A stretch of DNA of 64,000 nt from a virus. Taxonomy: Duplodnaviria > Caudoviricetes. This document shows, piece after piece, positions 52,790 through 64,000 of this stretch (the first letter of the stretch is position 1; each line of letters opens with the position of its first letter). The notes under the pieces were generated by a model. That model saw nothing but the letters and a program-made list of their open reading frames with translations, was not told where the DNA came from and made no database searches. The position numbers and the translations under genes were made by a program. The DNA lies in the IMG/VR virus record IMGVR_UViG_3300021254_001514, positions 1 to 64,000 of that record, one strand, 5' to 3'.

Positions 52790-54148
52790 CTACTCCTTAA
52801 CCTTAATTCTCTTTATTTTCTCGCACTTCTTACATCGAGGAGAAAATCCATCGCTAGACCTAGCTCTTTTAACAAAATTAATCTCATCCATAAGTAGAAC
52901 TCTGCCGCAATCTTTACACTTTTTGAAGTTTTCTGGAAAGAAAATATTCTCCAAGACTTCTCTATGTCTGCGCGCGGTCTGCGCAATTCCCTCTAAACAT
53001 TTCTTACAATATAAAGTAGAAATATAATTGGCTCTATACTTCTTCCCATATTTTTGATTAATAAAATTTACAATATCTTGATTCTGTACCTTTTGAATTT
53101 TTAAATCTAATATATCTTCTAAAATAGGATCTAAGTTACTAAGTTTCCTATAAACCATGGCGGCGCGCATAAATAAGCCCCTATTAGAATAAATAGAATC
53201 TTCAGGTTCTTCTAACTCTTCCCACATACTAAAAAGTGCATATAGGTGATCCGTATTTGTAAAATCAAAATACTTTTTTGTACCCGCCGCAGTATAAGCC
53301 AGCTTTTCTGGCTTCTCTACCTGTTCCTTTCTTTCATATTGACTTCCATCCCATAAAATTTTACTAATACTAATTAGCTCTTCCTCTCTAAAATCTTCGG
53401 GTTCCGGAAACCTATCCTCTCTAAAAATCTTTTCTCCTAATTCTCCTTTGAAGGGAAGTCCAATCGGTCTAACTAAAATTTCTTCACCAAAAGTCGGCCC
53501 GATTCCCTCATTAAAATTAAAAGTAGGTCTACTTAAATGAGTCTCATTAAAACTATCCCTATACGTATATTGCTCTCTTCTCATTTCAACTAGTGAATGC
53601 TTGAGTTTTAAATAGTTATAAGGAGAAGTTTGTTCAGAAAGACTCTTAATATTTTGTTGTTCTTCTGGAGAAAATTTGTCTAAGAGAGTTTGACGAGGTG
53701 GATTTTTTCGCTTATTATGCGCCAGGTCGTAAAAATTGATTAGAAGTTCTGTTTTGTCGATTTCTTTCCAGAGTTGTTCAAGAGCAGATAGAATGTGCGG
53801 TGGGGCGTTTTTGCGCGCCTCTGAACGAGAAAAGACTTCTCGTGAGATTTTTGTCGGAGGGTCGGATGGCCCTTTTAGCATTGTTTCAGAAAAGTTTGGA
53901 TTTTCGATTAAGGCATCGAGAGATTCGATTTTATTGGTGTCCCAAGTTCCGTATTTAGTTTCGAGTTCCAAGCCTTCTTGGCGGCCGTTTAGACCAGTTT
54001 CAGAATCTTTTCCCCATAAAATATATTTGGCCATTATATCAAGTTCGGACTCGTTGGGTGTAAAACGAATTTTTTGGAGGTAGTCTTGGATAAAGGTAAG
54101 ACGTTCTGAACGAGTTTGAAGTTGGAAGTTTAGTTGTAAGCGATTCAT
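52790..54148 (-). CDS. Hypothetical protein with a sigma-4/HTH-like segment and C-terminal Zn ribbon (regulator candidate)
   Basis: ILEDILDLKIQKVQNQDIVNFINQKYGKKYRANYISTL, then CKKC/CKDCG/CKKC. Confidence 0.5.
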   Translation of the reverse strand: MNRLQLNFQLQTRSERLTFIQDYLQKIRFTPNESELDIMAKYILWGKDSETGLNGRQEGLELETKYGTWDTNKIESLDALIENPNFSETMLKGPSDPPTKISREVFSRSEARKNAPPHILSALEQLWKEIDKTELLINFYDLAHNKRKNPPRQTLLDKFSPEEQQNIKSLSEQTSPYNYLKLKHSLVEMRREQYTYRDSFNETHLSRPTFNFNEGIGPTFGEEILVRPIGLPFKGELGEKIFREDRFPEPEDFREEELISISKILWDGSQYERKEQVEKPEKLAYTAAGTKKYFDFTNTDHLYALFSMWEELEEPEDSIYSNRGLFMRAAMVYRKLSNLDPILEDILDLKIQKVQNQDIVNFINQKYGKKYRANYISTLYCKKCLEGIAQTARRHREVLENIFFPENFKKCKDCGRVLLMDEINFVKRARSSDGFSPRCKKCEKIKRIKVKE

Positions 54149-54164
54149 TTTAGCTCCTTATATA

Positions 54165-54252
54165 AGCCAGACCAGTAGACTGGTCAGTAAGCCAGTGAGT
54201 AGACCAGCGAGTAGATTAGTAGAATTAATACTGGCGTATTGACTGGCGTATT
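54165..54252. repeat. Short tandem and inverted repeats in the leader of the leftward operon
   Basis: CCAGTGAGTAGA/CCAGCGAGTAGA in tandem (54192-54215), ACTGGCGTATT twice (54230, 54242), palindrome ACCAGT-AG-ACTGGT (54171-84). Confidence 0.75.
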
Positions 54253-54271
54253 TATTTTTCTTTCTATTCTT

Positions 54272-54300
54272 AGTATACAGAAAATTGGGGGAAAAGTCAA
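54272..54300 (-). promoter_or_regulatory. Leftward sigma-A-like promoter of the packaging/structural operon
   Basis: Minus strand TTGACT-17-TATACT. Confidence 0.7.
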
Positions 54301-54334
54301 ATTTTCGGAGTCACAATTTTTAAGAATCTCCTTA

Positions 54335-54510
54335 TTTTTTATTTCAAAAGTCTTTTTAAATTTTTTATTTCAAAAGTCTTTGTTACCAGGTGGGAGGGCA
54401 GTTAGACGCGTCTAACTCCAGTTTCCTAAAACCAACCCCGGGTAGGCGTACCTAACCTGAGTTAGCCGCCCCTAATCGCAATTAGATATGTTTAACCTCA
54501 GTTAGGTACA
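54335..54510. repeat. 21-bp direct repeat plus a GTTAG/CTAAC palindrome cluster
   Basis: TTTTTTATTTCAAAAGTCTTT at 54335 and 54361; perfect palindrome AGTTAGACGCGTCTAACT at 54400-17; TACCTAAC...GTTAGGTA inverted pair. Confidence 0.75.
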
Positions 54511-54693
54511 GAACGTTATTTTATAAACATAAAAGACAGTCTATAAATTTTATAACATAGTAGCGATAAAAAGCAAAAATATGCAAAAAAAATTTTTTTA
54601 AAAAAATGAAAAAAGGGGGTTGACAAGCTTTTTTTAGTGTGTTATAGTGTATACAGAAACAAGGAAAACCGAACCGCAAAAGGGGGGTACACT

Positions 54694-55170
54694 ATGAAAC
54701 GTAAAACCTATTCTATCAATATAGACTACGTCTATGACTCCGCGCGCAAGGGCGCAAAGTATAGCTTTAACAACGGCGCAAGCTGGGTCAATGGTGGTGA
54801 GGCTATTGAGATTTTTGTTAAGTCAGCGCTGGGTCTCTCAGCTGAGAAAGACGCTAACACGCCCTTCGATGTAGACAGTGATATCCCCGAATACCACGCA
54901 AGCGTGAAAAGCTCCGCTTTTACCTTAACAAGTGAAAAGCTGGGTGAGACTTTCGAGGAAGTGAAAGCTGAATACTTCCGCCGGACGGCTAGCACCTGCA
55001 CAGTATATGGATACGCTACAGAAGATACGCTGGTAACCTATTGGATGACAATGGAAGAGTTTGCAGAGTACCTGGACAAGTGGGGAACCTGGGAAGCCAG
55101 CCGCAAGGTAATCAGAGGAAAGAAGCTGAGTGGAAAGATGATAGAATGGTTCGAATCTAAGGTAGCGTAA
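54694..55170 (+). CDS. Hypothetical protein (first gene of the small-gene region)
   Basis: AGGGGGG RBS, own promoter, terminator hairpin at 55157-55180. Confidence 0.8.
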   Translation: MKRKTYSINIDYVYDSARKGAKYSFNNGASWVNGGEAIEIFVKSALGLSAEKDANTPFDVDSDIPEYHASVKSSAFTLTSEKLGETFEEVKAEYFRRTASTCTVYGYATEDTLVTYWMTMEEFAEYLDKWGTWEASRKVIRGKKLSGKMIEWFESKVA

Positions 55171-55452
55171 GCTACCTTAGAGGGAAATCAGTAAGTATAG
55201 AGAGAAGAACACTATGAGAACAAGAGAAGAAGCTGAGGTAAGAATCAACCATTGGAAAGCTGGTTGTTCATGCTGGATATGAAAGACCATTGGAAAGCTA
55301 AAGATTGGATACGCTATTATAAGATGAAGAAGGAAGCTGAAAAGCTTAAAGAAGGATTAAAGGTAAAAGCTTAGGCTCTTACCAAACAAAAACCTTGACA
55401 AGATAAATAAAGTATGATATAATTAAGCTATCAAAGATGAGGAGATAAAGCC

Positions 55453-55626
55453 ATGACAAGAGAAGAGATGTTAGATGAGGTTATTAGAGTAAGAGGGTTT
55501 GAGGATAGGTGGACAATCTGGTTTGCGGAACTAATGGAGAGTGAGACAATCTCTGATAGTGCTTTACAGAGTGCAATGGTTGCGGCGGTTGTAATGCCTT
55601 TCGATGATGAAGATGAGGATGAGTAG
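55453..55626 (+). CDS. 57-aa acidic hypothetical protein (MTREEMLDEVIRVRGFEDRW...)
   Basis: Not in the ORF track. Has a promoter at 55395, a GAGGAG RBS and a hairpin over the stop. Confidence 0.75.
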   Translation: MTREEMLDEVIRVRGFEDRWTIWFAELMESETISDSALQSAMVAAVVMPFDDEDEDE

Positions 55627-55769
55627 TCCTCATCTCTTTTACGCGTGGAGTATCAGCGCCCGGGCGATTTAGATTGTACACAATCTAAAATTTTTTATAA
55701 AAACTACTTGACAAAGTCTTATAAATAATGTATAATATAATTACAAAAAGAAAGAGAGGGAAATAAAAA

Positions 55770-55982
55770 ATGGGAGTTTATGAAGAGTTAGTAGAATATT
55801 TTGAGAATGGTTATGAAATATTCTTTGGTTCTTATTATGGTGATGATGATGAACCGATAGAGAGTTTACAGGAATTAGAATGGGCGTATAAGGATTCTAC
55901 TTGCGATTCTCTTTATATAGCATCCGTCGATGTTGATGATGAAAACCAATCCGTTTATGTATATGTAGGAGATGATGAGTAA
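55770..55982 (+). CDS. Very acidic small protein
   Basis: Own promoter and GAGAGGG RBS. Confidence 0.8.
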   Translation: MGVYEELVEYFENGYEIFFGSYYGDDDEPIESLQELEWAYKDSTCDSLYIASVDVDDENQSVYVYVGDDE

Positions 55983-56199
55983 TGGTGTATCTGTATATTT
56001 TTTGGATTATTTTATTCATTTTAAATTTAGTTGTTCTCTATATGTTTCGGCATTCCGAAAAATTTTTTAAAGACAGATTTAACAAAAGTTAAGTCTGTCT
56101 AACCTTGCCCGGGCGCGCCGTCATTTTGCATAAATTTTTTCTATTTTTTTGTATAATTTTTTACTTGACTTTATAGAAAAAATATGATAATATATAACC

Positions 56200-56346
56200 A
56201 TAGAAAACAAAAAACCCTTTCCTTTCCTAAAACTTTATAAGAGGGATTAAGGGGTAAGTGGCTTGAGGTTTGACGAGTAAAAAATTTTGCGGCGACCAGT
56301 CTCCCGTGGGATTTTTAAAAGCTTACTAACCATATCCCCTCCCTCT
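56200..56346 (+). ncRNA. Structured leader or sRNA candidate
   Basis: No ORF. Long-range pairs AGAGGG/CCCTCT, AGGGG/CCCCT and GTAAGT/GCTTAC behind promoter 56165. Confidence 0.45.
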
Positions 56347-56382
56347 AAAAAATTTTTCAAAAAAATTTAAGAGGAAAAAAAG

Positions 56383-56577
56383 ATGTCATTAAATAAAGCA
56401 ATTCAATATAATAAAGAACATAGAAAACCTTTCACAGGTGCAAAAAGTATTTGTAAAAGTTGCCGCAATCATGGCGGTTGTCCGTGGTGTGAAGGCAATA
56501 GGAAATATAAATACAAAAAAGTTGAAGAAAAAACAGAAAAAGACTTGACAAATTTTGAAAAATATAATATAATGTAA
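56383..56577 (+). CDS. Cys-rich small phage protein
   Basis: KEHRKP...CRNHGGCPWC. Confidence 0.8.
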   Translation: MSLNKAIQYNKEHRKPFTGAKSICKSCRNHGGCPWCEGNRKYKYKKVEEKTEKDLTNFEKYNIM

Positions 56578-56605
56578 TTACAAAAAAAGAAAGGAGATTC
56601 CTAAA

Positions 56606-56725
56606 ATGTGTATAATGGATGGAGTTGTAATTGCAGGTTGTGCTTTTGGATTATATATAATTGCCCTTATTGATGAAGGAATTAAGCAATTCAAAAAGAG
56701 GTTAAATGAAAAGAGAGGAAAATAA
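56606..56725 (+). CDS. 39-aa membrane peptide
   Basis: AAGGAG RBS; MCIMDGVVIAGCAFGLYIIALIDEG... Confidence 0.65.
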   Translation: MCIMDGVVIAGCAFGLYIIALIDEGIKQFKKRLNEKRGK

Positions 56726-56726
56726 A

Positions 56727-56921
56727 ATGGAAAATGTTCATATAAGATATGAGGGCGATTTATTTCTCACAGGACTTGCGCTTTTATTTATTGCACTAAA
56801 ATTGTGTGGCGTTATTCATTGGTCGTGGTTGTGGGTTCTTTCACCACTTTGGATTCCTTTTGGATTGATAGTTATATTTATCTTAGTTATTTTAGTTTGT
56901 AAAATTATAAAAAAGGGTTGA
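56727..56921 (+). CDS. Small membrane protein, paralogue of 60836..61051
   Basis: LKLCGVIHWSWLWVLSPLW. Confidence 0.8.
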   Translation: MENVHIRYEGDLFLTGLALLFIALKLCGVIHWSWLWVLSPLWIPFGLIVIFILVILVCKIIKKG

Positions 56922-56974
56922 CAAAACAAAAGTAGTGTGATATAATAAAGAAAAAAAGAAAGAGAGGATTTCAT

Positions 56975-57037
56975 ATGGCATTTATTTTCGTTTTCATCTA
57001 TTTTTCTGCATTATTCGTTGTAGCAAAAGAGGATTGA
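56975..57037 (+). CDS. 20-aa hydrophobic micro-ORF
   Basis: Own promoter (56918) and GAGAGGA RBS; MAFIFVFIYFSALFVVAKED. Confidence 0.45.
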   Translation: MAFIFVFIYFSALFVVAKED

Positions 57038-57048
57038 AGGAAAAAAAC

Positions 57049-57387
57049 AAAATCAAGAAAATTTAAGAAAAATGATTGACAACTTGAATTATATATGATA
57101 TAATTAAATCAGAAAAACGGAAAGACTTGCATCCAGTGGTTCGATGAAGATGGAAAATTTACTGGAAAAATTGAATGGGTATAGAGGGAAGAATATGAAA
57201 GATATAATTAAAAGAGAAACAGTAAAAGATTATACTTCTTGGGATTTAAACGCAAAATGTGTCAGAGTAAAAAATAGACAGGAACTTGAATCTAAATTCA
57301 AGAGAAAAGCAAGAAGAAAAAATCGAGAAAATTTAAGAAAAATGGTTGACAACTTGAATTATATATGATATAATTAAATCAGAAAAA
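57049..57387 (+). repeat. 69-bp promoter-containing direct repeat (57049-57117 / 57319-57387)
   Basis: Two mismatches; period exactly 270 bp. Confidence 0.92.
57195..57368 (+). CDS. Basic hypothetical protein
   Basis: GAGGG RBS before ATG 57195; the C-terminus is encoded by the second repeat copy. Confidence 0.65.
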   Translation: MKDIIKRETVKDYTSWDLNAKCVRVKNRQELESKFKRKARRKNRENLRKMVDNLNYI

Positions 57388-57406
57388 AAGAAAGAGAGGA
57401 ATTTAT

Positions 57407-57616
57407 ATGGAATGGACAAAATGGTTTTCTGTTGATGAGAGGTTGCCAGTATCAGGTGACACCGTGCTTGCGTATGATGGTTCAGATATGTTTGTAGCGT
57501 GGTGTTTTATTGACACTGATGAAAACTGCGTGCGATGGCATAGTTTTGATTCCAATTTCGATAAAGATACACCGATAATAAAATGGATGCCATTACCAGA
57601 CCCACATGAAGACTGA
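57407..57616 (+). CDS. DUF551-like protein
   Basis: WFSVDERLP...VLAY...IIKWMPLPDP. Confidence 0.8.
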   Translation: MEWTKWFSVDERLPVSGDTVLAYDGSDMFVAWCFIDTDENCVRWHSFDSNFDKDTPIIKWMPLPDPHED

Positions 57617-57822
57617 AAAATAAATAGTATAGATGGGCGCAAATGTATGTTTGCGCCTTTTTGTGGTCTTGAGTGCAAACGTCCTTTAATTATAGTTAGA
57701 CGTGTCTAACTTTTACCCGGGCGAGGTTAAGCGAGTCTAACTAAAATTAAATAAAAAAATACTTGACAAAACAAACTAAATGTGATAATATATAATCAGA
57801 AAAGGAAAGAGAGGTAATAAAA

Positions 57823-58131
57823 ATGATTAATATTAGAACACTTAGAAAAATTTCTGATAATGGCGGTCTCACTCTTAAGAATGGCAAACCGATTTCCTAT
57901 AAAAGCGGATGGCAAGTAGCAACCGAAGGAATCGAAACTACAGATATTCTTGAAGCGATGAAAGCAATTAAAGGATATAAGGGAAATTGCGGAATTTGGT
58001 TCTCTGATGGAATCTGGTACATAGATAAAAGTAAAAGAGTAGATACAAAGCGCGAAGCCATGGAGATTGGGCGCAAGTGCAATCAGATTTCTATTCTTAG
58101 ATGGCGCGATATGGGTTTGGCGTACTGCTAA
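57823..58131 (+). CDS. Hypothetical protein
   Basis: Own promoter, GAGAGG RBS, and a stop inside hairpin 58107-58141. Confidence 0.8.
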   Translation: MINIRTLRKISDNGGLTLKNGKPISYKSGWQVATEGIETTDILEAMKAIKGYKGNCGIWFSDGIWYIDKSKRVDTKREAMEIGRKCNQISILRWRDMGLAYC

Positions 58132-58255
58132 ACCCATATCGAATATTCGTTTTTTTTGCCCGGGCGCCACGTAGTTAGACGAGACTAACTAAAATTAAAT
58201 AAAAATTTTTTTAAAAGGGGTTGACAAACCATAAACTCCGTGCTATAATGTATAC

Positions 58256-58465
58256 ATAAGGTGAGAGATGGCAGAACGAGAGAAGGTCACAAGTCGACCG
58301 TATAAGACCATTTGACGAAAGTCCCCACCACCGCAAGCCGAAGTCCAACTTTGCGGTATATAAATGTGAGGCAACAGCGCACGCTCTTGGAAGTGCGAGG
58401 GTGGTTGGATTGAGAGAAAATGAGTTCGAGAGGTTTATCCCTCTCGGACTCGGCGCCCGGGCGCC
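58256..58465 (+). ncRNA. Structured ncRNA candidate with a pseudoknot
   Basis: Consensus promoter at 58221; no long + strand ORF (a 15-codon ORF at 58268); several stems, a GAAA tetraloop and an 8-bp loop-tail pairing. Confidence 0.6.
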
Positions 58466-58578
58466 GTTTTGTTATTTTGCACAAAAATAAAATCAATTTT
58501 TGTATATTTTTTTTCTTGACTTTTTATATATTAAGTGATATAATATATACATAAGATAAAGAAAAGGAGAAAAACAAA

Positions 58579-58683
58579 ATGGCAATCATTAAACTTGACG
58601 GTTATGTAATCGGTACGGAAAGAATTGAAGAAATCAACATAAGAGAACTTGAAGAAAATGGTTTCGTTGTTGTTATAAAGTAA
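58579..58683 (+). CDS. 34-aa hypothetical protein (MAIIKLDGYVIGTE...)
   Basis: Own promoter and AAGGAG RBS. Confidence 0.7.
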   Translation: MAIIKLDGYVIGTERIEEINIRELEENGFVVVIK

Positions 58684-58731
58684 AACGTATGTATTAAATA
58701 TAATAATAATAACTGAAAGGTAGGAGAAAAT

Positions 58732-58926
58732 ATGAAAGTTGAACTTATTTATTCCACTAAAGTAACTGTTTACTTTGATGACCTTTTTGAAAGAACAATG
58801 ACAGGAACTCTTGGAGAAATTCTTGATGAAGTAAAACTTTTAATGAGAGGATATAATTTTTCAAAGAGTGAACTTGTAGATGGTTTTACTGGTGAAATTA
58901 TAGCCATTGTTAAAACAGAAGTTTAG
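58732..58926 (+). CDS. Hypothetical protein
   Basis: AGGAG RBS; stop inside hairpin 58916-58949. Confidence 0.8.
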   Translation: MKVELIYSTKVTVYFDDLFERTMTGTLGEILDEVKLLMRGYNFSKSELVDGFTGEIIAIVKTEV

Positions 58927-59069
58927 TGCTTTAATGCACTAAATTTCTGCCCGGGCGCGCCGTCATTTTGCACAAAAAAAGACAAGAATTTTGTACACTT
59001 TTTTTTCTTGACAAATAAATAAAAATATGATAATATAATTATAGAAAATAAAGGAAAGGCGGTAAGGAT

Positions 59070-59504
59070 ATGGTAAAGGAAATTTGGTTTGATATGGACG
59101 GAACAATCGCAAATCTGTATGGTGTTGATGGTTGGCTTGATATGCTTATCGCTCAGGATTCTACACCCTATGAAGTAGCCGCTCCTATGGTGCGCATGGC
59201 AACGCTGGCAAGGTTGTTGAATCGTCTACAGAGACAGGGTTATAAAATTGGAGTTATCTCTTGGCTGAGCAAAACTTCCACCCCCGAATATGATAAAGCT
59301 GTCACAAAAGCAAAAAGAGCTTGGCTTGCAAAGCATTTAAAAAGCGTAAGGTTCGATAGAATAGATATAGTAAAATACGGTACACCAAAACAGAAAGGTA
59401 GAAACGGAATCCTGTTTGATGACGAAAAGCCGAATCGTGAAAACTGGAACGGCACTGCCTACAATGTAGACAACATTATCGAGGTATTGAAGGGGCTTGC
59501 ATAG
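59070..59504 (+). CDS. HAD-superfamily phosphatase (5'-nucleotidase-like)
   Basis: WFDMDGT, ISW, K, and ILFDD motifs. Confidence 0.85.
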   Translation: MVKEIWFDMDGTIANLYGVDGWLDMLIAQDSTPYEVAAPMVRMATLARLLNRLQRQGYKIGVISWLSKTSTPEYDKAVTKAKRAWLAKHLKSVRFDRIDIVKYGTPKQKGRNGILFDDEKPNRENWNGTAYNVDNIIEVLKGLA

Positions 59505-59547
59505 CCCTTTCTTTCAATGCGCCCGGGCGAACTTGTTCACCCGAGTT

Positions 59548-59576
59548 ATTATAACACATTGGGAGAGATTTGTCAA
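59548..59576 (-). promoter_or_regulatory. Antisense (leftward) sigma-A promoter 1
   Basis: Minus strand TTGACA-17-TATAAT. Confidence 0.8.
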
Positions 59577-59716
59577 TAGGCAATTCATACAAATATTTTC
59601 TATAAAATTTGTGTATTCTGACATATTGCATTTTCATAAAACTTGTGATATACTTTAATTACAGTAAAGGAAGAAGATAAAGTTAAATATTATTATGAAA
59701 CATGGAGGTATTGATT

Positions 59717-59929
59717 ATGTATATTATTACTGTATTAACTTCTGGGAAGTACCATAATGTAACACTTGGTCATCGGGTTGCTTTTACTCGATTTGGTTTA
59801 AAATATATGACAAATAACTTCTATGAATGTGATTGTAGTTTTACAGTAGAAAAAACCTTTAAATTACATAATTTAGTCTTTGGAACGAAATTAATTTATT
59901 TCAGAAAGGCAAAACGAGAGTACAAGTAA
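59717..59929 (+). CDS. Hypothetical protein
   Basis: GGAGG RBS before ATG 59717. Confidence 0.75.
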   Translation: MYIITVLTSGKYHNVTLGHRVAFTRFGLKYMTNNFYECDCSFTVEKTFKLHNLVFGTKLIYFRKAKREYK

Positions 59930-59965
59930 TCGTCCTCTCGGGCGCGCAAGCGTCCGCGCCCGGGC

Positions 59966-59995
59966 ATTTTATCACAGGAAAGGAGTGTTTGTCAA
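59966..59995 (-). promoter_or_regulatory. Antisense promoter 2
   Basis: Minus strand TTGACA-18-TAAAAT with extended TG. Confidence 0.65.
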
Positions 59996-60116
59996 GAGAA
60001 AATTTTAAGAAAAAATAAAAATTTTTTTGAAGTTTTTTCTTGACAAATTTTAGATTTTTTGATATAATTTAATTACAGAAAGGGAAAAAATCCCATAAAT
60101 AGAAAGGAGAATATAA

Positions 60117-60353
60117 ATGTATATTGATGAAACAGCAAAAATGGAAGCTTATTTTAATGATCGAGAAAAGGAATCTTTTATTGATACTATTGGAATCCTT
60201 GAAAAATTAATTGACAAAATGATAGACTATGAACGTCGTTATATTGAATATGATAATTATGATGATGATGGTTATAATGCTTATAGTATTGTAACAATTA
60301 AAGATGTAAAAGAAACACTTGAAAATATTAAAGAGATGAATTTTATTTATTAA
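60117..60353 (+). CDS. Acidic hypothetical protein
   Basis: Own promoter and AAGGAG RBS. Confidence 0.8.
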   Translation: MYIDETAKMEAYFNDREKESFIDTIGILEKLIDKMIDYERRYIEYDNYDDDGYNAYSIVTIKDVKETLENIKEMNFIY

Positions 60354-60369
60354 AGAAAGGAAAACAAAA

Positions 60370-60600
60370 ATGAAATGTTATATGGTATATGTAGACAAAG
60401 TTAATTATAATGAATACGATGCTTGTATTGTGTTGGCTGATTCCGAAGAAGAAGTTCGTAGTATGTTTAAAAAAGAAGAATCTTATGAATATATTCCTGG
60501 AATAGAAGAGGATGTTTACTTTTATAACTATCAAGGAAAAATTCATATAGAAGAAGTAACAGAAAAAGGTTTGGTTCTTGCAAGTTTTAATGCAGGATAA
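60370..60600 (+). CDS. Hypothetical protein, paralogue of 9656..9862
   Basis: Shared motif described for 9656..9862; AAGGA RBS. Confidence 0.8.
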   Translation: MKCYMVYVDKVNYNEYDACIVLADSEEEVRSMFKKEESYEYIPGIEEDVYFYNYQGKIHIEEVTEKGLVLASFNAG

Positions 60601-60673
60601 ATGAAAGGAGAAGAATAAAATTTTAATACCGAGAAGGCGCACCCTTCTCGGGTGTGCTTTGCACACCCGAGTA

Positions 60674-60703
60674 ATTATACCGCCCGGGGTGCAACTTTGT
60701 CAA
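60674..60703 (-). promoter_or_regulatory. Antisense promoter 3
   Basis: Minus strand TTGACA-18-TATAAT. Confidence 0.7.
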
Positions 60704-60835
60704 TAGGAAAACTTCACAAATTTATAAAAAATATTTTGTTTATTTTGTCTATTGCCTTTTTTTTATATTGTGATATACTATAATTACCGAAAGGGAAGAA
60801 AACAAAAACACACAAAAAGAAAAGGAGAGAGTAAA

Positions 60836-61051
60836 ATGAAAAATAATAATACAAAAAGAGTAGGTCTTGGTTTCTTTGATGCTTTAACAATCGTATTCAT
60901 TGTATTAAAACTTTGTGGCGTAATTACTTGGTCATGGGTATGGGTACTGGCGCCACTGTGGGGACAGATTGCAATAATTTTACTAATTGTAATTATTGGT
61001 GTTTCTATCGTATTGATAAGGGACAGAAGATGCAATGGAATGTTTTTTTAA
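60836..61051 (+). CDS. Small membrane protein, paralogue of 56727..56921
   Basis: LKLCGVITWSWVWVLAPLW; AAGGAG RBS. Confidence 0.8.
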   Translation: MKNNNTKRVGLGFFDALTIVFIVLKLCGVITWSWVWVLAPLWGQIAIILLIVIIGVSIVLIRDRRCNGMFF

Positions 61052-61200
61052 GTAAGACATGGAGAGTGAAAAAATGTTTGCTTTCTTAATTGTCGTAACA
61101 GACGAAAAACAAAAATAAAAAACCTTTTCCTTCCTTAAAAAAGAGTAGAGATTTTTCTCTACTCTTTTCCTTTTCTCGAGCGTGCGCGCACGCCCGAGCA

Positions 61201-61229
61201 ATTATACTACTTCGCGCCGGATATGTCAA
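61201..61229 (-). promoter_or_regulatory. Antisense promoter 4
   Basis: Minus strand TTGACA-17-TATAAT. Confidence 0.8.
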
Positions 61230-61335
61230 TAGTAAATTTTAACAAAAATTTTTTATTTCTTTGTGCAAAATTTTACTTGACTTTTTTTCTCTTTTCTGAT
61301 ATAGTATATATAGAAAGAGAAAGGAGATTTCTAAA

Positions 61336-61572
61336 ATGAGAGAATTTTTCTGTATCGAAGAACCTTATACTTTCGAGGTCATGGATTTATTTTCCGTCAT
61401 CACTGTATTAAACGTGGTTTTAGTTCTTGTAGGTCTTTGGTGGGCGCCAATTATCGGACTTGTAAATTGTGCTTTAAACATTCTGTACAGTGTAAAGCAT
61501 AAAAGTCATATAAATGGTTATGTGATGCAGATTGCACTCATTGTATTAAATAGTTATTTTTTAACTTTATAA
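61336..61572 (+). CDS. Small membrane protein
   Basis: AAGGAG RBS; two to three hydrophobic segments. Confidence 0.8.
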   Translation: MREFFCIEEPYTFEVMDLFSVITVLNVVLVLVGLWWAPIIGLVNCALNILYSVKHKSHINGYVMQIALIVLNSYFLTL

Positions 61573-61775
61573 AAAAGTTCTTGACTTTTTAACTTTTATA
61601 GTATATAATATAATTACAAAGTTAAGGAAAGGCTTTTAAAACTTCTGATAAAACCCCATAGGAGTGTGTAAGGAAGTCAAGGTGCGCACAGGGTTGAAAA
61701 AATCTTTTTAAAAGGGTCTTGACAAACCTTTCCTACTTTGATATAATAAAGAAAAAAGAAAGCGAGGATTTAAAA

Positions 61776-61988
61776 ATGACAGAGTGGTACAATTTCCTTT
61801 ATGAAATCGTTGGAGAAGAAAGCGACCTTTGCGGAGAAGAATTTCTCGTTGCGGTTAATGTACCTTGGGAAAATGCGCAAGATTATGCAAATGGTATTGC
61901 AAGAACATCATTTCCCAATGAAGAAATCAGAGGTTATGGTTATGTAACCGAAGAAGAAGCGGAAATGATGGGACTTGATACATACTAA
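61776..61988 (+). CDS. Acidic hypothetical protein
   Basis: GAGGA RBS before ATG 61776; own promoter. Confidence 0.8.
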   Translation: MTEWYNFLYEIVGEESDLCGEEFLVAVNVPWENAQDYANGIARTSFPNEEIRGYGYVTEEEAEMMGLDTY

Positions 61989-62061
61989 AAAGAAAAGGAC
62001 TTAACAAAAGTTAAGTCCCTTTAACTTTACCCGGGCGCGGCGGATTAAGGCATAATCTTAT

Positions 62062-62090
62062 ATTATATCATATTATTTCTTTCTTGTCAA
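62062..62090 (-). promoter_or_regulatory. Antisense promoter 5
   Basis: Minus strand TTGACA-17-TATAAT with extended TG. Confidence 0.8.
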
Positions 62091-62209
62091 TAGGCAAATT
62101 ACACAAATTTTTCTTTTTATTTTTGTCACTTTGTATATTGCAATTTTTATAAAATAGTAGTAATATAATATATGAAAGGTGAGGGAAGTCTGGCGACTAT
62201 CCCAAAACC

Positions 62210-62435
62210 CTTCAAAAAAAAGTTAAAAAAACTCTTGACAAACTCCTTAAAATCTGATATAATAAAGATACAAAAGAGGTCAAGAAAAACTTCTTAAAAA
62301 AGTTAAAAAAAGACTTGACAACTCTTTAAGAATCTGATATAATAAAGGTACAAAAAGAGAAAAGCCTTTAAAAAACTTCTTAAAAAAAGTTAAAAAAAGA
62401 CTTGACAAGCAACCGAAAAGGTGCTATAATAAAAG
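62210..62435 (+). repeat. Triplicated promoter unit (periods 80 and 87 bp)
   Basis: AAAAAAGTTAAAAAAA...CTTGACA-17-TATAATAAA three times. Confidence 0.9.
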
Positions 62436-62517
62436 TGTAAAAAGGAAGAGATAGGAACTCTTCCATAACAAATAAAAATTGCGCCCACTGCATAAGTGTG
62501 GGAGAAAGAGGTCTATT

Positions 62518-62871
62518 ATGACAAAGAGAATGTTTCTGGAAGCTGTAGTAAATGGTTCTGAGCTTACTGATGAGATGAGAGCTTTCGCTCGTGAGACTAT
62601 TGATAAGCTTGACGCTACAAATCGGTCTCGCTCCGCTAAGGTCGCTGAAAAGCGTGCTAAGGAAGATGCTCCGCTGATTGCAAAAATCATGGAGTACCTC
62701 GCCGCTAAGGGTACTGGTGCTACCGCATCTGAAATCGCTAAGGAAGTAGAGGTCTCTACCGCAAAGGCTTCCGCTCTGTGCGCAAAGCTTGAGCGTGAGG
62801 GTGAACTCGTCTCCTCCAAGGCTAAGGAGCGTGCGCCTAAGGTCTACGCTATTCCGTCTGATGCGGAATAA
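62518..62871 (+). CDS. Winged-HTH DNA-binding protein, probably highly expressed
   Basis: ATASEIAKEVEVSTAKASALCAKLEREGELV; GCT/AAG/CGT codon bias; GAGG RBS. Confidence 0.75.
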   Translation: MTKRMFLEAVVNGSELTDEMRAFARETIDKLDATNRSRSAKVAEKRAKEDAPLIAKIMEYLAAKGTGATASEIAKEVEVSTAKASALCAKLEREGELVSSKAKERAPKVYAIPSDAE

Positions 62872-62875
62872 TCCC

Positions 62876-62906
62876 AAAGGGGGAAAGGGTCTTTCGACCC
62901 TTTCCC
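62876..62906 (+). terminator. Hairpin after the wHTH gene
   Basis: GGGAAAGGGTC-tttc-GACCCTTTCCC. Confidence 0.65.
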
Positions 62907-63139
62907 AATAACTAAATAAAACTTGACAAAATTTAAAATTTATTATATAATAAATATAGAAAATGAAAGGGCGTAGACTATCTGCGCCCGGATAACTTCA
63001 TTTCATATTTGCCCGGGCGCGGTTAGACAAGTCTAACTAAAATTAAAGAAACTTTTTTAAAAAAGTTGTTGACTTTTTTCTTATTCTGTGGTAATATAAT
63101 ACTTGTAAGGAACAGAATAAACGAAAGAGAGGACTTAAA

Positions 63140-63781
63140 ATGAAAGTTATCGTTCTTGACACGGAGACTACTAACTCTATTGATGACCCCATCTGTTATG
63201 ATATTGGGTGGGCAGTAGTTGATCCTGAAACTGGAGAAATTTTTAAGACAAGAAGCTTTGCGGTAGCTGAGATTTTTCTTGATAAAGAGCTGATGAGCTA
63301 TGCGTATTTTGCTGATAAAATCCCCTCTTATTGGGATGAGATTAAACGTGGAGAACGGAAACTTGCTCGCCTCTATAATATTAGAAAGGCTTTACAAGCT
63401 GATTGCAAGAAATATTTCATTTCTGAAATTTATGCACACAACGCTCGATTTGATTATCGTTCGTGCAATCTCACGCAAAGATTTTTGACTTCTTCTAAAT
63501 ATCGTTATTTTTTCCCTTACGGAATAACGATTTGCGATACGCTAAAAATGGCAAGGGAAGCCTTCAAGAATTGCCCAGAATACTGCGATTTTTGTGAGAG
63601 AAATAACTATAAAACTGAGAAAGGACAAAACCGTTATACCGCTGAAATTCTTTATAGGTTTTTTACAGGTGATAATGATTTTATGGAAGAGCATAAAGGT
63701 CTTGATGATGTTAGAATTGAAAAAGAAATTTTAAAAGAATGCTTGCGAAGAGGTATTACAAAAAGTGCGCTTTGGTCTTGA
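63140..63781 (+). CDS. DEDDh 3'-5' exonuclease
   Basis: VLDTETT, YAHNARFD, CDTL, EEHKGLDD. Confidence 0.9.
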   Translation: MKVIVLDTETTNSIDDPICYDIGWAVVDPETGEIFKTRSFAVAEIFLDKELMSYAYFADKIPSYWDEIKRGERKLARLYNIRKALQADCKKYFISEIYAHNARFDYRSCNLTQRFLTSSKYRYFFPYGITICDTLKMAREAFKNCPEYCDFCERNNYKTEKGQNRYTAEILYRFFTGDNDFMEEHKGLDDVRIEKEILKECLRRGITKSALWS

Positions 63782-64000
63782 CCAAGGCGCCCGGGCGCGG
63801 TTAGAGACATCTAACTAAAATTAAAGAAAAATTTGAAATTTATGCTTGACTTTTCTGAAAATATCGTGTATAATCTTATTAAAGAGTTAAGGAAAGCGCG
63901 CAACTCCCAAAAAAAATTGAAAAATTTTTTAAAAAGTCCTTGACAAACCAAATAAAGTATGCTATAATAAGTATATAAAAAAGAAAGAGAGGTAACTACT

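Follow-up and report, generated by a model that had tools for sequence, protein, structure and literature searches.

The phage and its array

The stretch of DNA considered in this study (the window) consists of the first 64,000 bases of the linear virus record IMGVR_UViG_3300021254_001514 (82,852 bp), which is about 71% complete and has a GC content of 33%. My subject is an array of small genes at 54.4-64.8 kb, reaching past the end of the window to about 64,800, in which the genes are separated by junctions assembled from a limited set of repeated parts. The phage is large, uncultured and siphovirus-like, and comes from the rumen. Its plus strand carries replication genes for a topoisomerase II, a Sak4-like annealing protein, DnaB, a primase, a RecJ-like exonuclease, a 1323-aa polymerase, NrdD, dUTPase and a RuvC-like resolvase, and its structural block, with terminase, portal and a 2503-aa tape measure protein, occupies the minus strand at 23.6-54.1 kb. 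The closest cultured terminases, all below 40% identity, come from large siphoviruses of Bacillus, Geobacillus, Enterococcus, Lactococcus and Clostridium, and terminase relatives belong without exception to phages of Firmicutes. The host is probably a Firmicute and a member of the Clostridia.

The array was compared with those of relatives, taken from 26 IMG/VR loci (anchored on a conserved 452-aa gene) and 80 metagenome loci (anchored on array gene g15). A search for near-identical phage records gave none, in a collection from which close kin may be missing. I will refer to these loci by numbers beginning with L, to array genes as g01 to g25, and to the three types of junction, described below, as classes A, B and C. 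Promoters termed backward lie on the minus strand; ORF stands for open reading frame. The features of the array are as follows.

54149-54619, plus: gene-free left border, from the last minus-strand gene of the structural block to the first array promoter; contains GTTAGAC-GC-GTCTAAC (54401), CCCCGGG (54437), nested palindromes and short tandem repeats, partly kept in L002 and L004
54620-55170, plus: promoter (54620-54648) and g01 (54694-55170, 158 aa, no family)
55395-55626, plus: perfect promoter (55395-55423) and g03 (57 aa)
55658-55736, plus: variant class A junction; GCCCGGGCG, then an AT-rich hairpin with T-run, then a perfect promoter (55708-55736)
55770-56092, plus: g04 (70 aa) and g05 (36 aa, hydrophobic)
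56076-56193, plus: class B junction; terminator hairpin TTAAC-AAAA-GTTAA (as at 61997), GCCCGGGCGCGCCGTC, dyad TTTGCATAAA..TTTGTA, promoter (56165-56193)
56197-56382, plus: ORF-free leader of 190 nt, or non-coding unit, after promoter 56165; weak structure (fold z-score -0.35)
56383-57037, plus: g06 (Cys-rich, 64 aa), promoter 56545, g07, g08 (membrane, 56727-56921), promoter 56918, 20-codon ORF
57037-57395, plus: g10 cassette between 89-nt repeats (57037-57125 and 57307-57395), with perfect promoters at 57076 and 57346
57407-57616, plus: g11, DUF551 (69 aa)
57635-57791, plus: class A junction; terminator (57635-57658), GTTAGAC-GT-GTCTAAC (57695), ACCCGGGCG (57716), a second dyad, TAAAATTAAA, promoter (57763-57791)
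57823-58131, plus: g12 (102 aa)
58107-58249, plus: class A junction; T8 terminator, GCCCGGGCG (58158), GTTAGAC-GA-GACTAAC, TAAAATTAAA, perfect promoter (58221-58249)
58256-58466, plus: GC-richer, ORF-free unit of 210 nt after a perfect promoter, ending in a CGGCGC-CCGG-GCGCCG hairpin and T-run (fold z-score -1.88)
58451-58544, plus: class B junction; GCCCGGGCGCCG, dyad TTTGCACAAA..TTTGTA, T-run, promoter (58516-58544)
58579-58926, plus: g13 (34 aa) and g14 (64 aa)
58949-59036, plus: class B junction; GCCCGGGCGCGCCGTC, dyad TTTGCACAAA..TTTGTAC, T8, promoter (59008-59036)
59070-59504, plus: g15, HAD-type 5'(3')-deoxyribonucleotidase, conserved at more loci (96) than any other array gene
59521-59653, plus: class C junction; GC hairpin (59522-59545), backward promoter (59576-59548, minus), dyad ACAAAT..ATTTGT, weak promoter TTGCAT-17-TATACT (59625-59653)
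59717-59929, plus: g16 cassette (70 aa), missing from the closest relative, L028
59937-60068, plus: class C junction; hairpin CTCGGGCGCG..CGCGCCCGGG, backward promoter (59995-59966, minus), perfect forward promoter (60040-60068)
60117-60600, plus: g17 (78 aa) and g18 (76 aa), acidic ORFans
60629-60779, plus: class C junction; two tandem hairpins, backward promoter (60703-60674, minus, CCCGGGG in its spacer), dyad, forward promoter (60752-60779)
60836-61051, plus: g19, membrane protein, paralog of g08
61139-61305, plus: class C junction; bidirectional terminator (61139-61168), GC hairpin (61175-61198), perfect backward promoter (61229-61201, minus), dyad, forward promoter (61277-61305)
61336-61988, plus: g20 (membrane, 78 aa), promoter 61581 with a 100-nt ORF-free leader, perfect promoter 61719, g21 (70 aa)
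61993-62166, plus: class C junction; bidirectional terminator (61993-62022), ACCCGGGCGCGG (62030), perfect backward promoter (62090-62062, minus), dyad, weak forward promoter (62138-62166)
62205-62430, plus: three tandem perfect promoters (62235, 62315, 62402) in repeat units of 80-87 bp before g22
62518-62871, plus: g22, winged-helix DNA-binding protein
62923-63097, plus: perfect promoter 62923 and a 55-nt hairpin unit, then a class A junction; GCCCGGGCG (63011), GTTAGAC-AA-GTCTAAC, TAAAATTAAA, promoter (63069-63097)
63140-63781, plus: g23, DEDDh/DnaQ-like exonuclease (213 aa)
63789-64000, plus: class A junction; GCCCGGGCG (63789), GTTAGAG-AC-ATCTAAC, TAAAATTAAA, promoter (63846-63874), then a short leader and a perfect promoter (63940-63968)
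Past the window end: g24, g25 and the right border, CCCGGGCG (64723) with a backward promoter (64762)

Promoters and genes of the array

Seventeen perfect promoters (TTGACA-N17-TATAAT) are found in the whole window, as compared to 0.06 expected from shuffled sequences, and all of them lie within 55,395-63,968. With one mismatch in either hexamer, forward promoters number 23 in 54,620-63,968 and two elsewhere on the plus strand. Three weaker forward promoters in class C junctions (59625-59653, 60752-60779 and 62138-62166) bring the total to the 26 claimed in an earlier note on this DNA, which had most units under a near-consensus promoter of their own; that description holds, as 23 near-consensus promoters and 3 weaker ones. 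Five consensus promoters of the window face the opposite way, and the minus-strand structural block contains no consensus promoters of the host type. In most array promoters the -10 is extended by a TG, and a standard leader and then the ribosome-binding site AGAAAGAGAGG come next; promoter-leader families reach 12 copies within the genome. Terminator-like hairpins, predicted to close the units, are found at nearly every junction, upstream of the promoter (14, versus 5.3 expected from shuffles), in agreement with the earlier description. The shuffles rule out chance or low complexity as the origin of these motifs.

About 24 ORFs of the array have strong ribosome-binding sites, and five or six promoter-led stretches contain no ORF. 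Family matches were obtained for five genes: g11 (DUF551), g15 (HAD-type 5'(3')-deoxyribonucleotidase), g22 (winged helix, IclR/MarR-like HTH), g23 (DEDDh/DnaQ-like exonuclease) and, weakly, g19. Counted over the 24 genes, 20 belong to no family, and most array genes are not common to the relatives. The three tandem promoter units ahead of g22, kept also in L028, would make this gene strongly promoted, and it is a candidate regulator. The 89-nt direct repeats that bracket the g10 cassette are 91% identical, each with a perfect promoter; the left copy also duplicates sequence of the 3' end of g10, and a homolog of g10 lies at another location in L002.

The ORF-free unit 56197-56382 has no homolog among the relatives. 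The unit at 58256-58466, with no Rfam family and no homolog in about 100 related arrays, is a candidate lineage-specific small RNA. An Rfam scan of the window gave no match at the gathering threshold, the sole sub-threshold match being to STnc400, at chance level.

Junctions and their parts

The earlier note sorted the junctions into three recurring designs and saw in them a grammar. The three classes are real, yet they do not form a closed grammar, and sister lineages use other sets of parts. The junctions are combinations of about seven parts in a common order (terminator hairpin, GC hairpin, backward promoter, GC palindrome, one of two dyads, A/T tract, promoter with leader). A gene-specific terminator comes first, followed optionally by a GC hairpin with a backward promoter, and then by the GC palindrome YGCCCGGGCR; beyond this lie an optional dyad (GTTAG-N6-CTAAC or ACAAA-N-TTTGT), an A/T tract, a promoter and a leader. 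Classes B and C have their right half in common. The terminator hairpin may also be reused, TTAAC-AAAA-GTTAA closing both g05 and g21. The motifs of all three classes are confined to the array.

The class A dyad GTTAG-N6-CTAAC (5 copies, versus 0.08 expected from shuffles) is accompanied by TAAAATTAAA, and class A also has CTAACTAAAATTAAA, present in four copies and nowhere else in the genome; the class A tail occurs only at the class A junctions. The exact form given in the earlier note, GTTAGAC-N2-GTCTAAC, is limited to 54401, 57695 and 63022. A trans-acting RNA complementary to the class A tail was considered and rejected, there being no reverse-complement copy of the tail in the genome. 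The class B motif, TTGCAYAAA-N-TTTGT, occurs three times, at precisely the sites reported previously (56107, 58455 and 58949), and its dyad, TTGCACAAA..TTTGTGCAA, is found again in lineages with an anchor protein only 42-66% identical.

Class C was described as a hairpin followed by an antisense and a forward promoter. A backward promoter does stand beside a hairpin at all five sites (59521, 59937, 60647, 61175 and 62030), but the hairpin is not uniform, that at 62030 being of another kind. In the GC hairpin of class C the outer stem, CTCGGG/CCCGAG, is invariant and the inner stem covaries. The -10 and -35 of the backward promoter flank the position of the GC palindrome, so that the palindrome or its relic lies in the spacer, and the backward -10 doubles as the U-rich tail of the plus-strand hairpin.

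The GC palindrome

The palindrome GCCCGGGC occurs in 9 copies, as compared to 0.14 expected from shuffles. The core CCCGGG is present 14 times in the whole 82.9-kb record, always within 54,437-64,723, and four of these copies (54437, 57716, 60683 and 62030) deviate from GCCCGGGCG. The relatives contain 173 distinct copies of GCCCGGGC, with the consensus YGCCCGGGCR and A-rich DNA downstream, and in three whole relative records each copy lies inside the array. A strict promoter is found no more than 100 nt downstream of 55% of the copies (at a median of 41 nt), as compared to 15% for random positions in the same arrays. Two simple views of the palindrome can be set aside. It is not a true hairpin, complementarity in the 173 copies being at background past 10 bp, nor is it a universal requirement of the arrays, as promoter-dense arrays exist without it (L044 has 39 promoters and no copy). 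The palindrome, at 8-10 bp, is too short for a hairpin and stands at varying distances from the promoter; it would therefore seem to be either a DNA site bound by a dimeric protein or a structural clamp separating strong units.

In L085, L066, L099, L063 and L072 the junction position of GCCCGGGC is taken by GGCCGGCC or CGGGCCGGCCCG, which adjoin AGTTAGTT..AACTAACT dyads; the GC-only palindrome is different there and the CCGG centre is the same. A literature search for the 8-mer palindrome returned only primer sequences.

Gene order and part sets in relatives

The nine structural genes beside the array serve as a control, being present and collinear in all 26 relatives. The array itself varies widely in order and content, contrary to the fixed gene order that the earlier note had named as refuting its proposal of a recombination-shuffled region. 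Only g15, g22, g23 and g24, of 24 array genes, recur often, and they do so in at least 10 different orders. Genes g03, g06, g12, g20 and g21 switch neighbours and sides among the relatives: L044, for example, has the order g12-g03-g06-g21-g15 and this genome g03-g06-g12-g15-g21, and g06, immediately before g15 in several lineages, is 2.7 kb from it here.

Promoter-dense arrays are found throughout the family, with a maximum of 39 consensus promoters in 16 kb, and the part sets are specific to lineages. Some lineages have 18-19 copies of GCCCGGGC and others none; further lineages have GGCCGGCC at its position, or CTTTA-N6-TAAAG dyads. Junction classes at the same genes also differ between genomes: the g22/g23 and g23/g24 junctions are class A in this genome and class C in L028, and the leader before g21 (promoter 61581) is 80% identical to L028:6126-6291, which precedes g24.

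Breakpoints of cassette exchange

The closest relative, L028, has a g15 protein 85% identical to that considered here and lacks the g16 cassette. Its junction after g15 is a chimera, the left half as in the 59521 junction and the right half as in the 59937 junction. The right half (59988-60117 versus L028:1809-1937) is 98.5% identical over 130 nt, as compared to 78.5% for g15; the crossover falls within the common ATTTGTCAA (the backward -35), and homology stops at the ATG of a different downstream gene. Within L028, the class C hairpin at 2659-2683 takes its left inner arm (TTCGC) and its right inner arm (GCACA) from two other hairpins of the same genome, leaving two mismatches, and is the footprint of a crossover in the loop.

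Similar events are seen in a trio of loci, L017, L018 and L027, which are 90-95% identical. A 435-bp cassette in L018 lies between CCCGGGC and TCGGGC, and the shorter allele, in L017, has the hybrid TCCGGGC. A 694-bp cassette in L027 is flanked by a 30-nt promoter-leader repeat, a 1211-bp segment in L017 lies between -35 and -10, and a 128-bp module of terminator plus promoter constitutes an indel of its own. Nine further close pairs yielded 14 clean indels, of which 12 lie between direct repeats of 10-53 bp made of junction parts (promoter and leader, GC palindrome or terminator); in two cases (L036/L039 and L062/L064) the crossover is in CGCCCGGGCG. In all, the cassette indels of about 10 close pairs, resolved to the nucleotide, break inside repeated junction parts, usually with direct repeats of 10-53 bp on their flanks; the earlier note's reading would have been refuted by breakpoints unrelated to the modules, and this is not what is seen.

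On the structural side, L017 and L018 (92% identical) also have exact insertions within genes, of 349 bp (L017 6185-6534) and 964 bp (L018 6634-7598; both in reverse-complemented locus coordinates), without flanking repeats. These look like intron or homing-endonuclease insertions.

Interpretation of the array

I take the array to be an early accessory (hyperplastic) region dependent on the host polymerase, whose cassettes are shuffled via homologous junction parts, and would put the probability of this at about 0.78. Some 25 tiny, mostly orphan genes and a few ORF-free units would each be expressed autonomously, from a consensus extended -10 sigma-A promoter that is preceded by an A/T-rich tract and followed by a standard leader with a strong ribosome-binding site, and each unit would end in a closing hairpin. 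Given the promoter consensus and the lack of such promoters in the structural block, host sigma-A polymerase would transcribe each unit immediately after infection. The junctions would terminate and insulate adjacent units and carry operator-like dyads, which may divide the early promoters into sub-classes controlled by phage regulators, g22 for example. Since the same parts, 10-130 bp in length, stand at every junction, they would serve as homology patches, between which single-strand annealing or recombination may delete, insert, duplicate and permute whole cassettes. The enzymes may be the phage's Sak4-like protein, RecJ or RuvC, or those of the host; Sak4 is kept in a relative that is 97% complete.

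Several considerations weigh against this account. Promoters, terminators and timing are all assigned purely by consensus, and the terms "early" and "co-regulated", used in the earlier note, likewise go back to nothing other than the host-type promoter consensus. The roles of the dyads and the GC palindrome as protein-binding operator or insulator sites are putative, as are those of the backward promoters. I considered g22 as the reader of one motif family, but its presence in the partial loci follows none of these families. The record is a linear fragment, about 71% complete, so a recombinase or regulator gene may be missing from it. Viable recombinants keep genes intact, and some clustering of breakpoints between genes is therefore expected under any mechanism. 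Finally, a single informative event, that versus L028, involves this genome, the others being in sister lineages.

It might be argued that the parts are regulatory signals only, that cassettes turn over by illegitimate or other recombination, and that breakpoints at junctions merely reflect viability. The genes are short and densely packed, and selection alone would then put surviving breakpoints between them; moreover, the indel in L082/L083 and the last one in L075/L086, out of 14 clean events, have no flanking repeats, and some replacements begin exactly at a ribosome-binding site or ATG with no obvious repeat. I nonetheless find this view rather improbable in the face of the other 12 indels, with homologous overlap at both ends, the hybrid motifs and chimeric hairpin that mark crossovers inside parts, the promoter-leader part far better conserved between genomes than the adjacent gene, and the structural-side indels of L017/L018, a pair showing such repeats in its array and none there. 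An integron-like, site-specific system, in which GCCCGGGC (or GGCCGGCC in sister lineages) is a core site cut and rejoined by a phage enzyme, strikes me as very improbable. No match to tyrosine or serine recombinases (PF00589, PF00239), and no adjacent tyrosine recombinase of the IntI type, was found in this record or in the 97%-complete relative. The lack of an integrase-type enzyme, the promoter-bearing cassettes and the spread of crossovers over several parts, mostly promoters and leaders and not the palindrome, disfavour such a mechanism, as do the dense arrays devoid of GCCCGGGC, L044 among them. Integron cassettes, moreover, lack promoters of their own, are served by one common promoter and end in attC, an imperfect palindrome, unlike the nearly always self-promoted cassettes seen here with a boundary palindrome of only 8-10 bp. 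The idea draws on the confinement of the palindrome to the array (here and in the three whole relative records), on its place at cassette boundaries, on three indels with the crossover exactly in it, and on a weak endonuclease VII-like match (E 3.7e-4) at the C-terminus of the adjoining conserved 452-aa ORF.

The class C junctions invite another view, in which they are primarily genes for a family of small RNAs (antisense or hairpin, 60-95 nt) transcribed from the backward promoters, shuffling being secondary. I hold this to be possible but doubtful, along with the suggestion that such RNAs act in shut-off of early genes, roadblocking of RNA polymerase or counter-defence. The backward promoters are fully consensus, including the extended -10, both in this genome (5 plus 1) and in L028 (8), and they occur with other GC hairpins in L044, L053, L084, L091, L096 and L046, making at least eight lineages in all. 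The hairpin they target has the invariant and covarying stems noted above, and at 61175, 62030 and 64723 the upstream terminator also reads as a minus-strand terminator, giving three of the six backward promoters of this genome a plausible one. At 59521 and 59937, however, no minus-strand terminator follows, and no Rfam family matches. The covariation is explained without antisense RNA, since on the plus strand the hairpins would also be terminators, the backward -10 supplying the U-rich tail. The backward promoters could be head-on roadblocks, antisense shut-off devices or genes for hairpin RNAs of 60-95 nt. Those of L085, L066, L093 and L099 were excluded as class C units because they drive ordinary minus-strand genes. 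I think it unlikely that the GC-only palindromes (YGCCCGGGCR, GGCCGGCC) and the backward promoters firing into GC hairpins are dedicated boundary devices, together forming a purpose-built system of cassette exchange and insulation and not incidental promoter homology. Such devices might take the form of a protein-bound insulator or crossover site, of head-on "collision terminators", or of tiny hairpin-RNA genes, and if real would insulate each cassette and also direct the sites of cassette exchange.

Relation to known systems

The closest parallel to shuffling via homologous junction parts is provided by the promoter-early stem-loop (PeSL) cassettes in hyperplastic regions of T4-type phages (Arbiol et al. 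2010, PMC2839356; Comeau et al. 2014, PMC4122927). These combine an early promoter of the host sigma-70 type, an A/T-rich upstream tract and a G/C-rich stem-loop, in five subclasses, and in T4-type phages both mini-circles and promoter/terminator activity have been shown (PMC2839356; PMC4122927). The array resembles them in its consensus host early promoters, in the A-rich tract between GC motif and -35, in the concentration of motifs in a variable region before small orphan genes, and in indel or replacement breakpoints between close relatives that fall inside the motifs. It differs in belonging to an unrelated siphovirus-like group, with extended -10 promoters of the Firmicute type, and not to a T4-like myovirus; in the position of its stem-loop, upstream of the promoter and not inside or overlapping it; and in its extra parts, namely the GC-only palindrome of 8-10 bp, two dyad families and backward promoters facing a hairpin. 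Functionally defined, the array is a predicted PeSL system in an unrelated phage group, with additional parts.

An analogy of architecture only can be drawn with the host-takeover module of the Bacillus phage SPO1, likewise a cluster of small genes with multiple strong sigma-A promoters in a Firmicute phage. That module (described by Stewart et al. in 1998) reportedly lies in the terminal redundancy, with some two dozen small early genes, and is said to have many strong sigma-A promoters, strong ribosome-binding sites and few terminators, and to shut off host synthesis. I know of no description in SPO1 of families of junction parts, GC palindromes or part-mediated shuffling, and the array, unlike the SPO1 module in its terminal redundancy, is known from a linear fragment. 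Short conserved sites repeated at gene boundaries call to mind, again as analogy only, the stoperators of cluster A mycobacteriophages and the REP/BIME elements of enterobacteria. Stoperators are asymmetric 13-mers at many gene boundaries, bound by the immunity repressor of these temperate phages and with a proposed effect on transcription read-through. REP/BIME elements are GC-rich extragenic palindromes to which gyrase and other proteins bind, longer than the present palindrome, true hairpins, and found across the chromosome. The palindrome considered here ends at 10 bp and is confined to the array.

The nearest published relative of the phage, phAss-1, belongs to a gut siphovirus group with predicted Clostridia hosts (PMC10607447). 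The two are alike in terminase (37% identity), in g15 nucleotidase (42%) and in having a long tape measure protein; phAss-1 differs in recoding TAG, code 11 reading normally in the present phage, and in lacking a GCCCGGGC array. The region around its g15 homolog (L109, OQ749652.1 122042-135976) contains 13 consensus sigma-A promoters in 14 kb; promoters are not mentioned in the paper describing it (PMC10607447).

If the proposed reading is right, promoter-terminator-mediated shuffling, so far known from T4-like myoviruses of Gram-negative hosts, would extend to a large, diverse family of uncultured siphoviruses that come from rumen and gut and infect Firmicutes. Its natural arrays, of which more than 100 can be consulted, record many independent events of gain, loss and reordering. 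They may be read as a catalogue of compact, strong and standardised expression parts for Firmicutes and as a reservoir of small orphan early genes, among which factors of host takeover or counter-defence are likely. Two features, the GC palindrome confined to the array and the backward promoter next to a hairpin, raise the testable question of how strong transcription units are insulated when packed so densely.

Other observations

The 452-aa ORF that adjoins the array (52790-54148, minus strand) is kept in all relatives, at 38-66% identity. Its only PHROG matches are weak, to a sigma factor (E 7.5e-4) and, at the C-terminus, to endonuclease VII (E 3.7e-4), and is possibly a late-gene sigma factor. 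An N6/N4-type DNA methyltransferase is encoded at 844-1587 (PF01555, E 1.7e-34). Its specificity cannot be read from the sequence; PF01555 includes N4-cytosine enzymes, and a link to CCCGGG or the CCGG-centred palindromes is conceivable.

Between 54230 and 54330 the left border has short tandem TTATTTCAAAAGTCTTT repeats and nested palindromes, with partial conservation in L002 and L004. Lastly, g08 and g19 are paralogous small membrane proteins in separate cassettes, with the common motif LKLCGVI.WSW.WVL.PLW, and their homologs stand as neighbouring pairs in L036, L068, L070 and L095.

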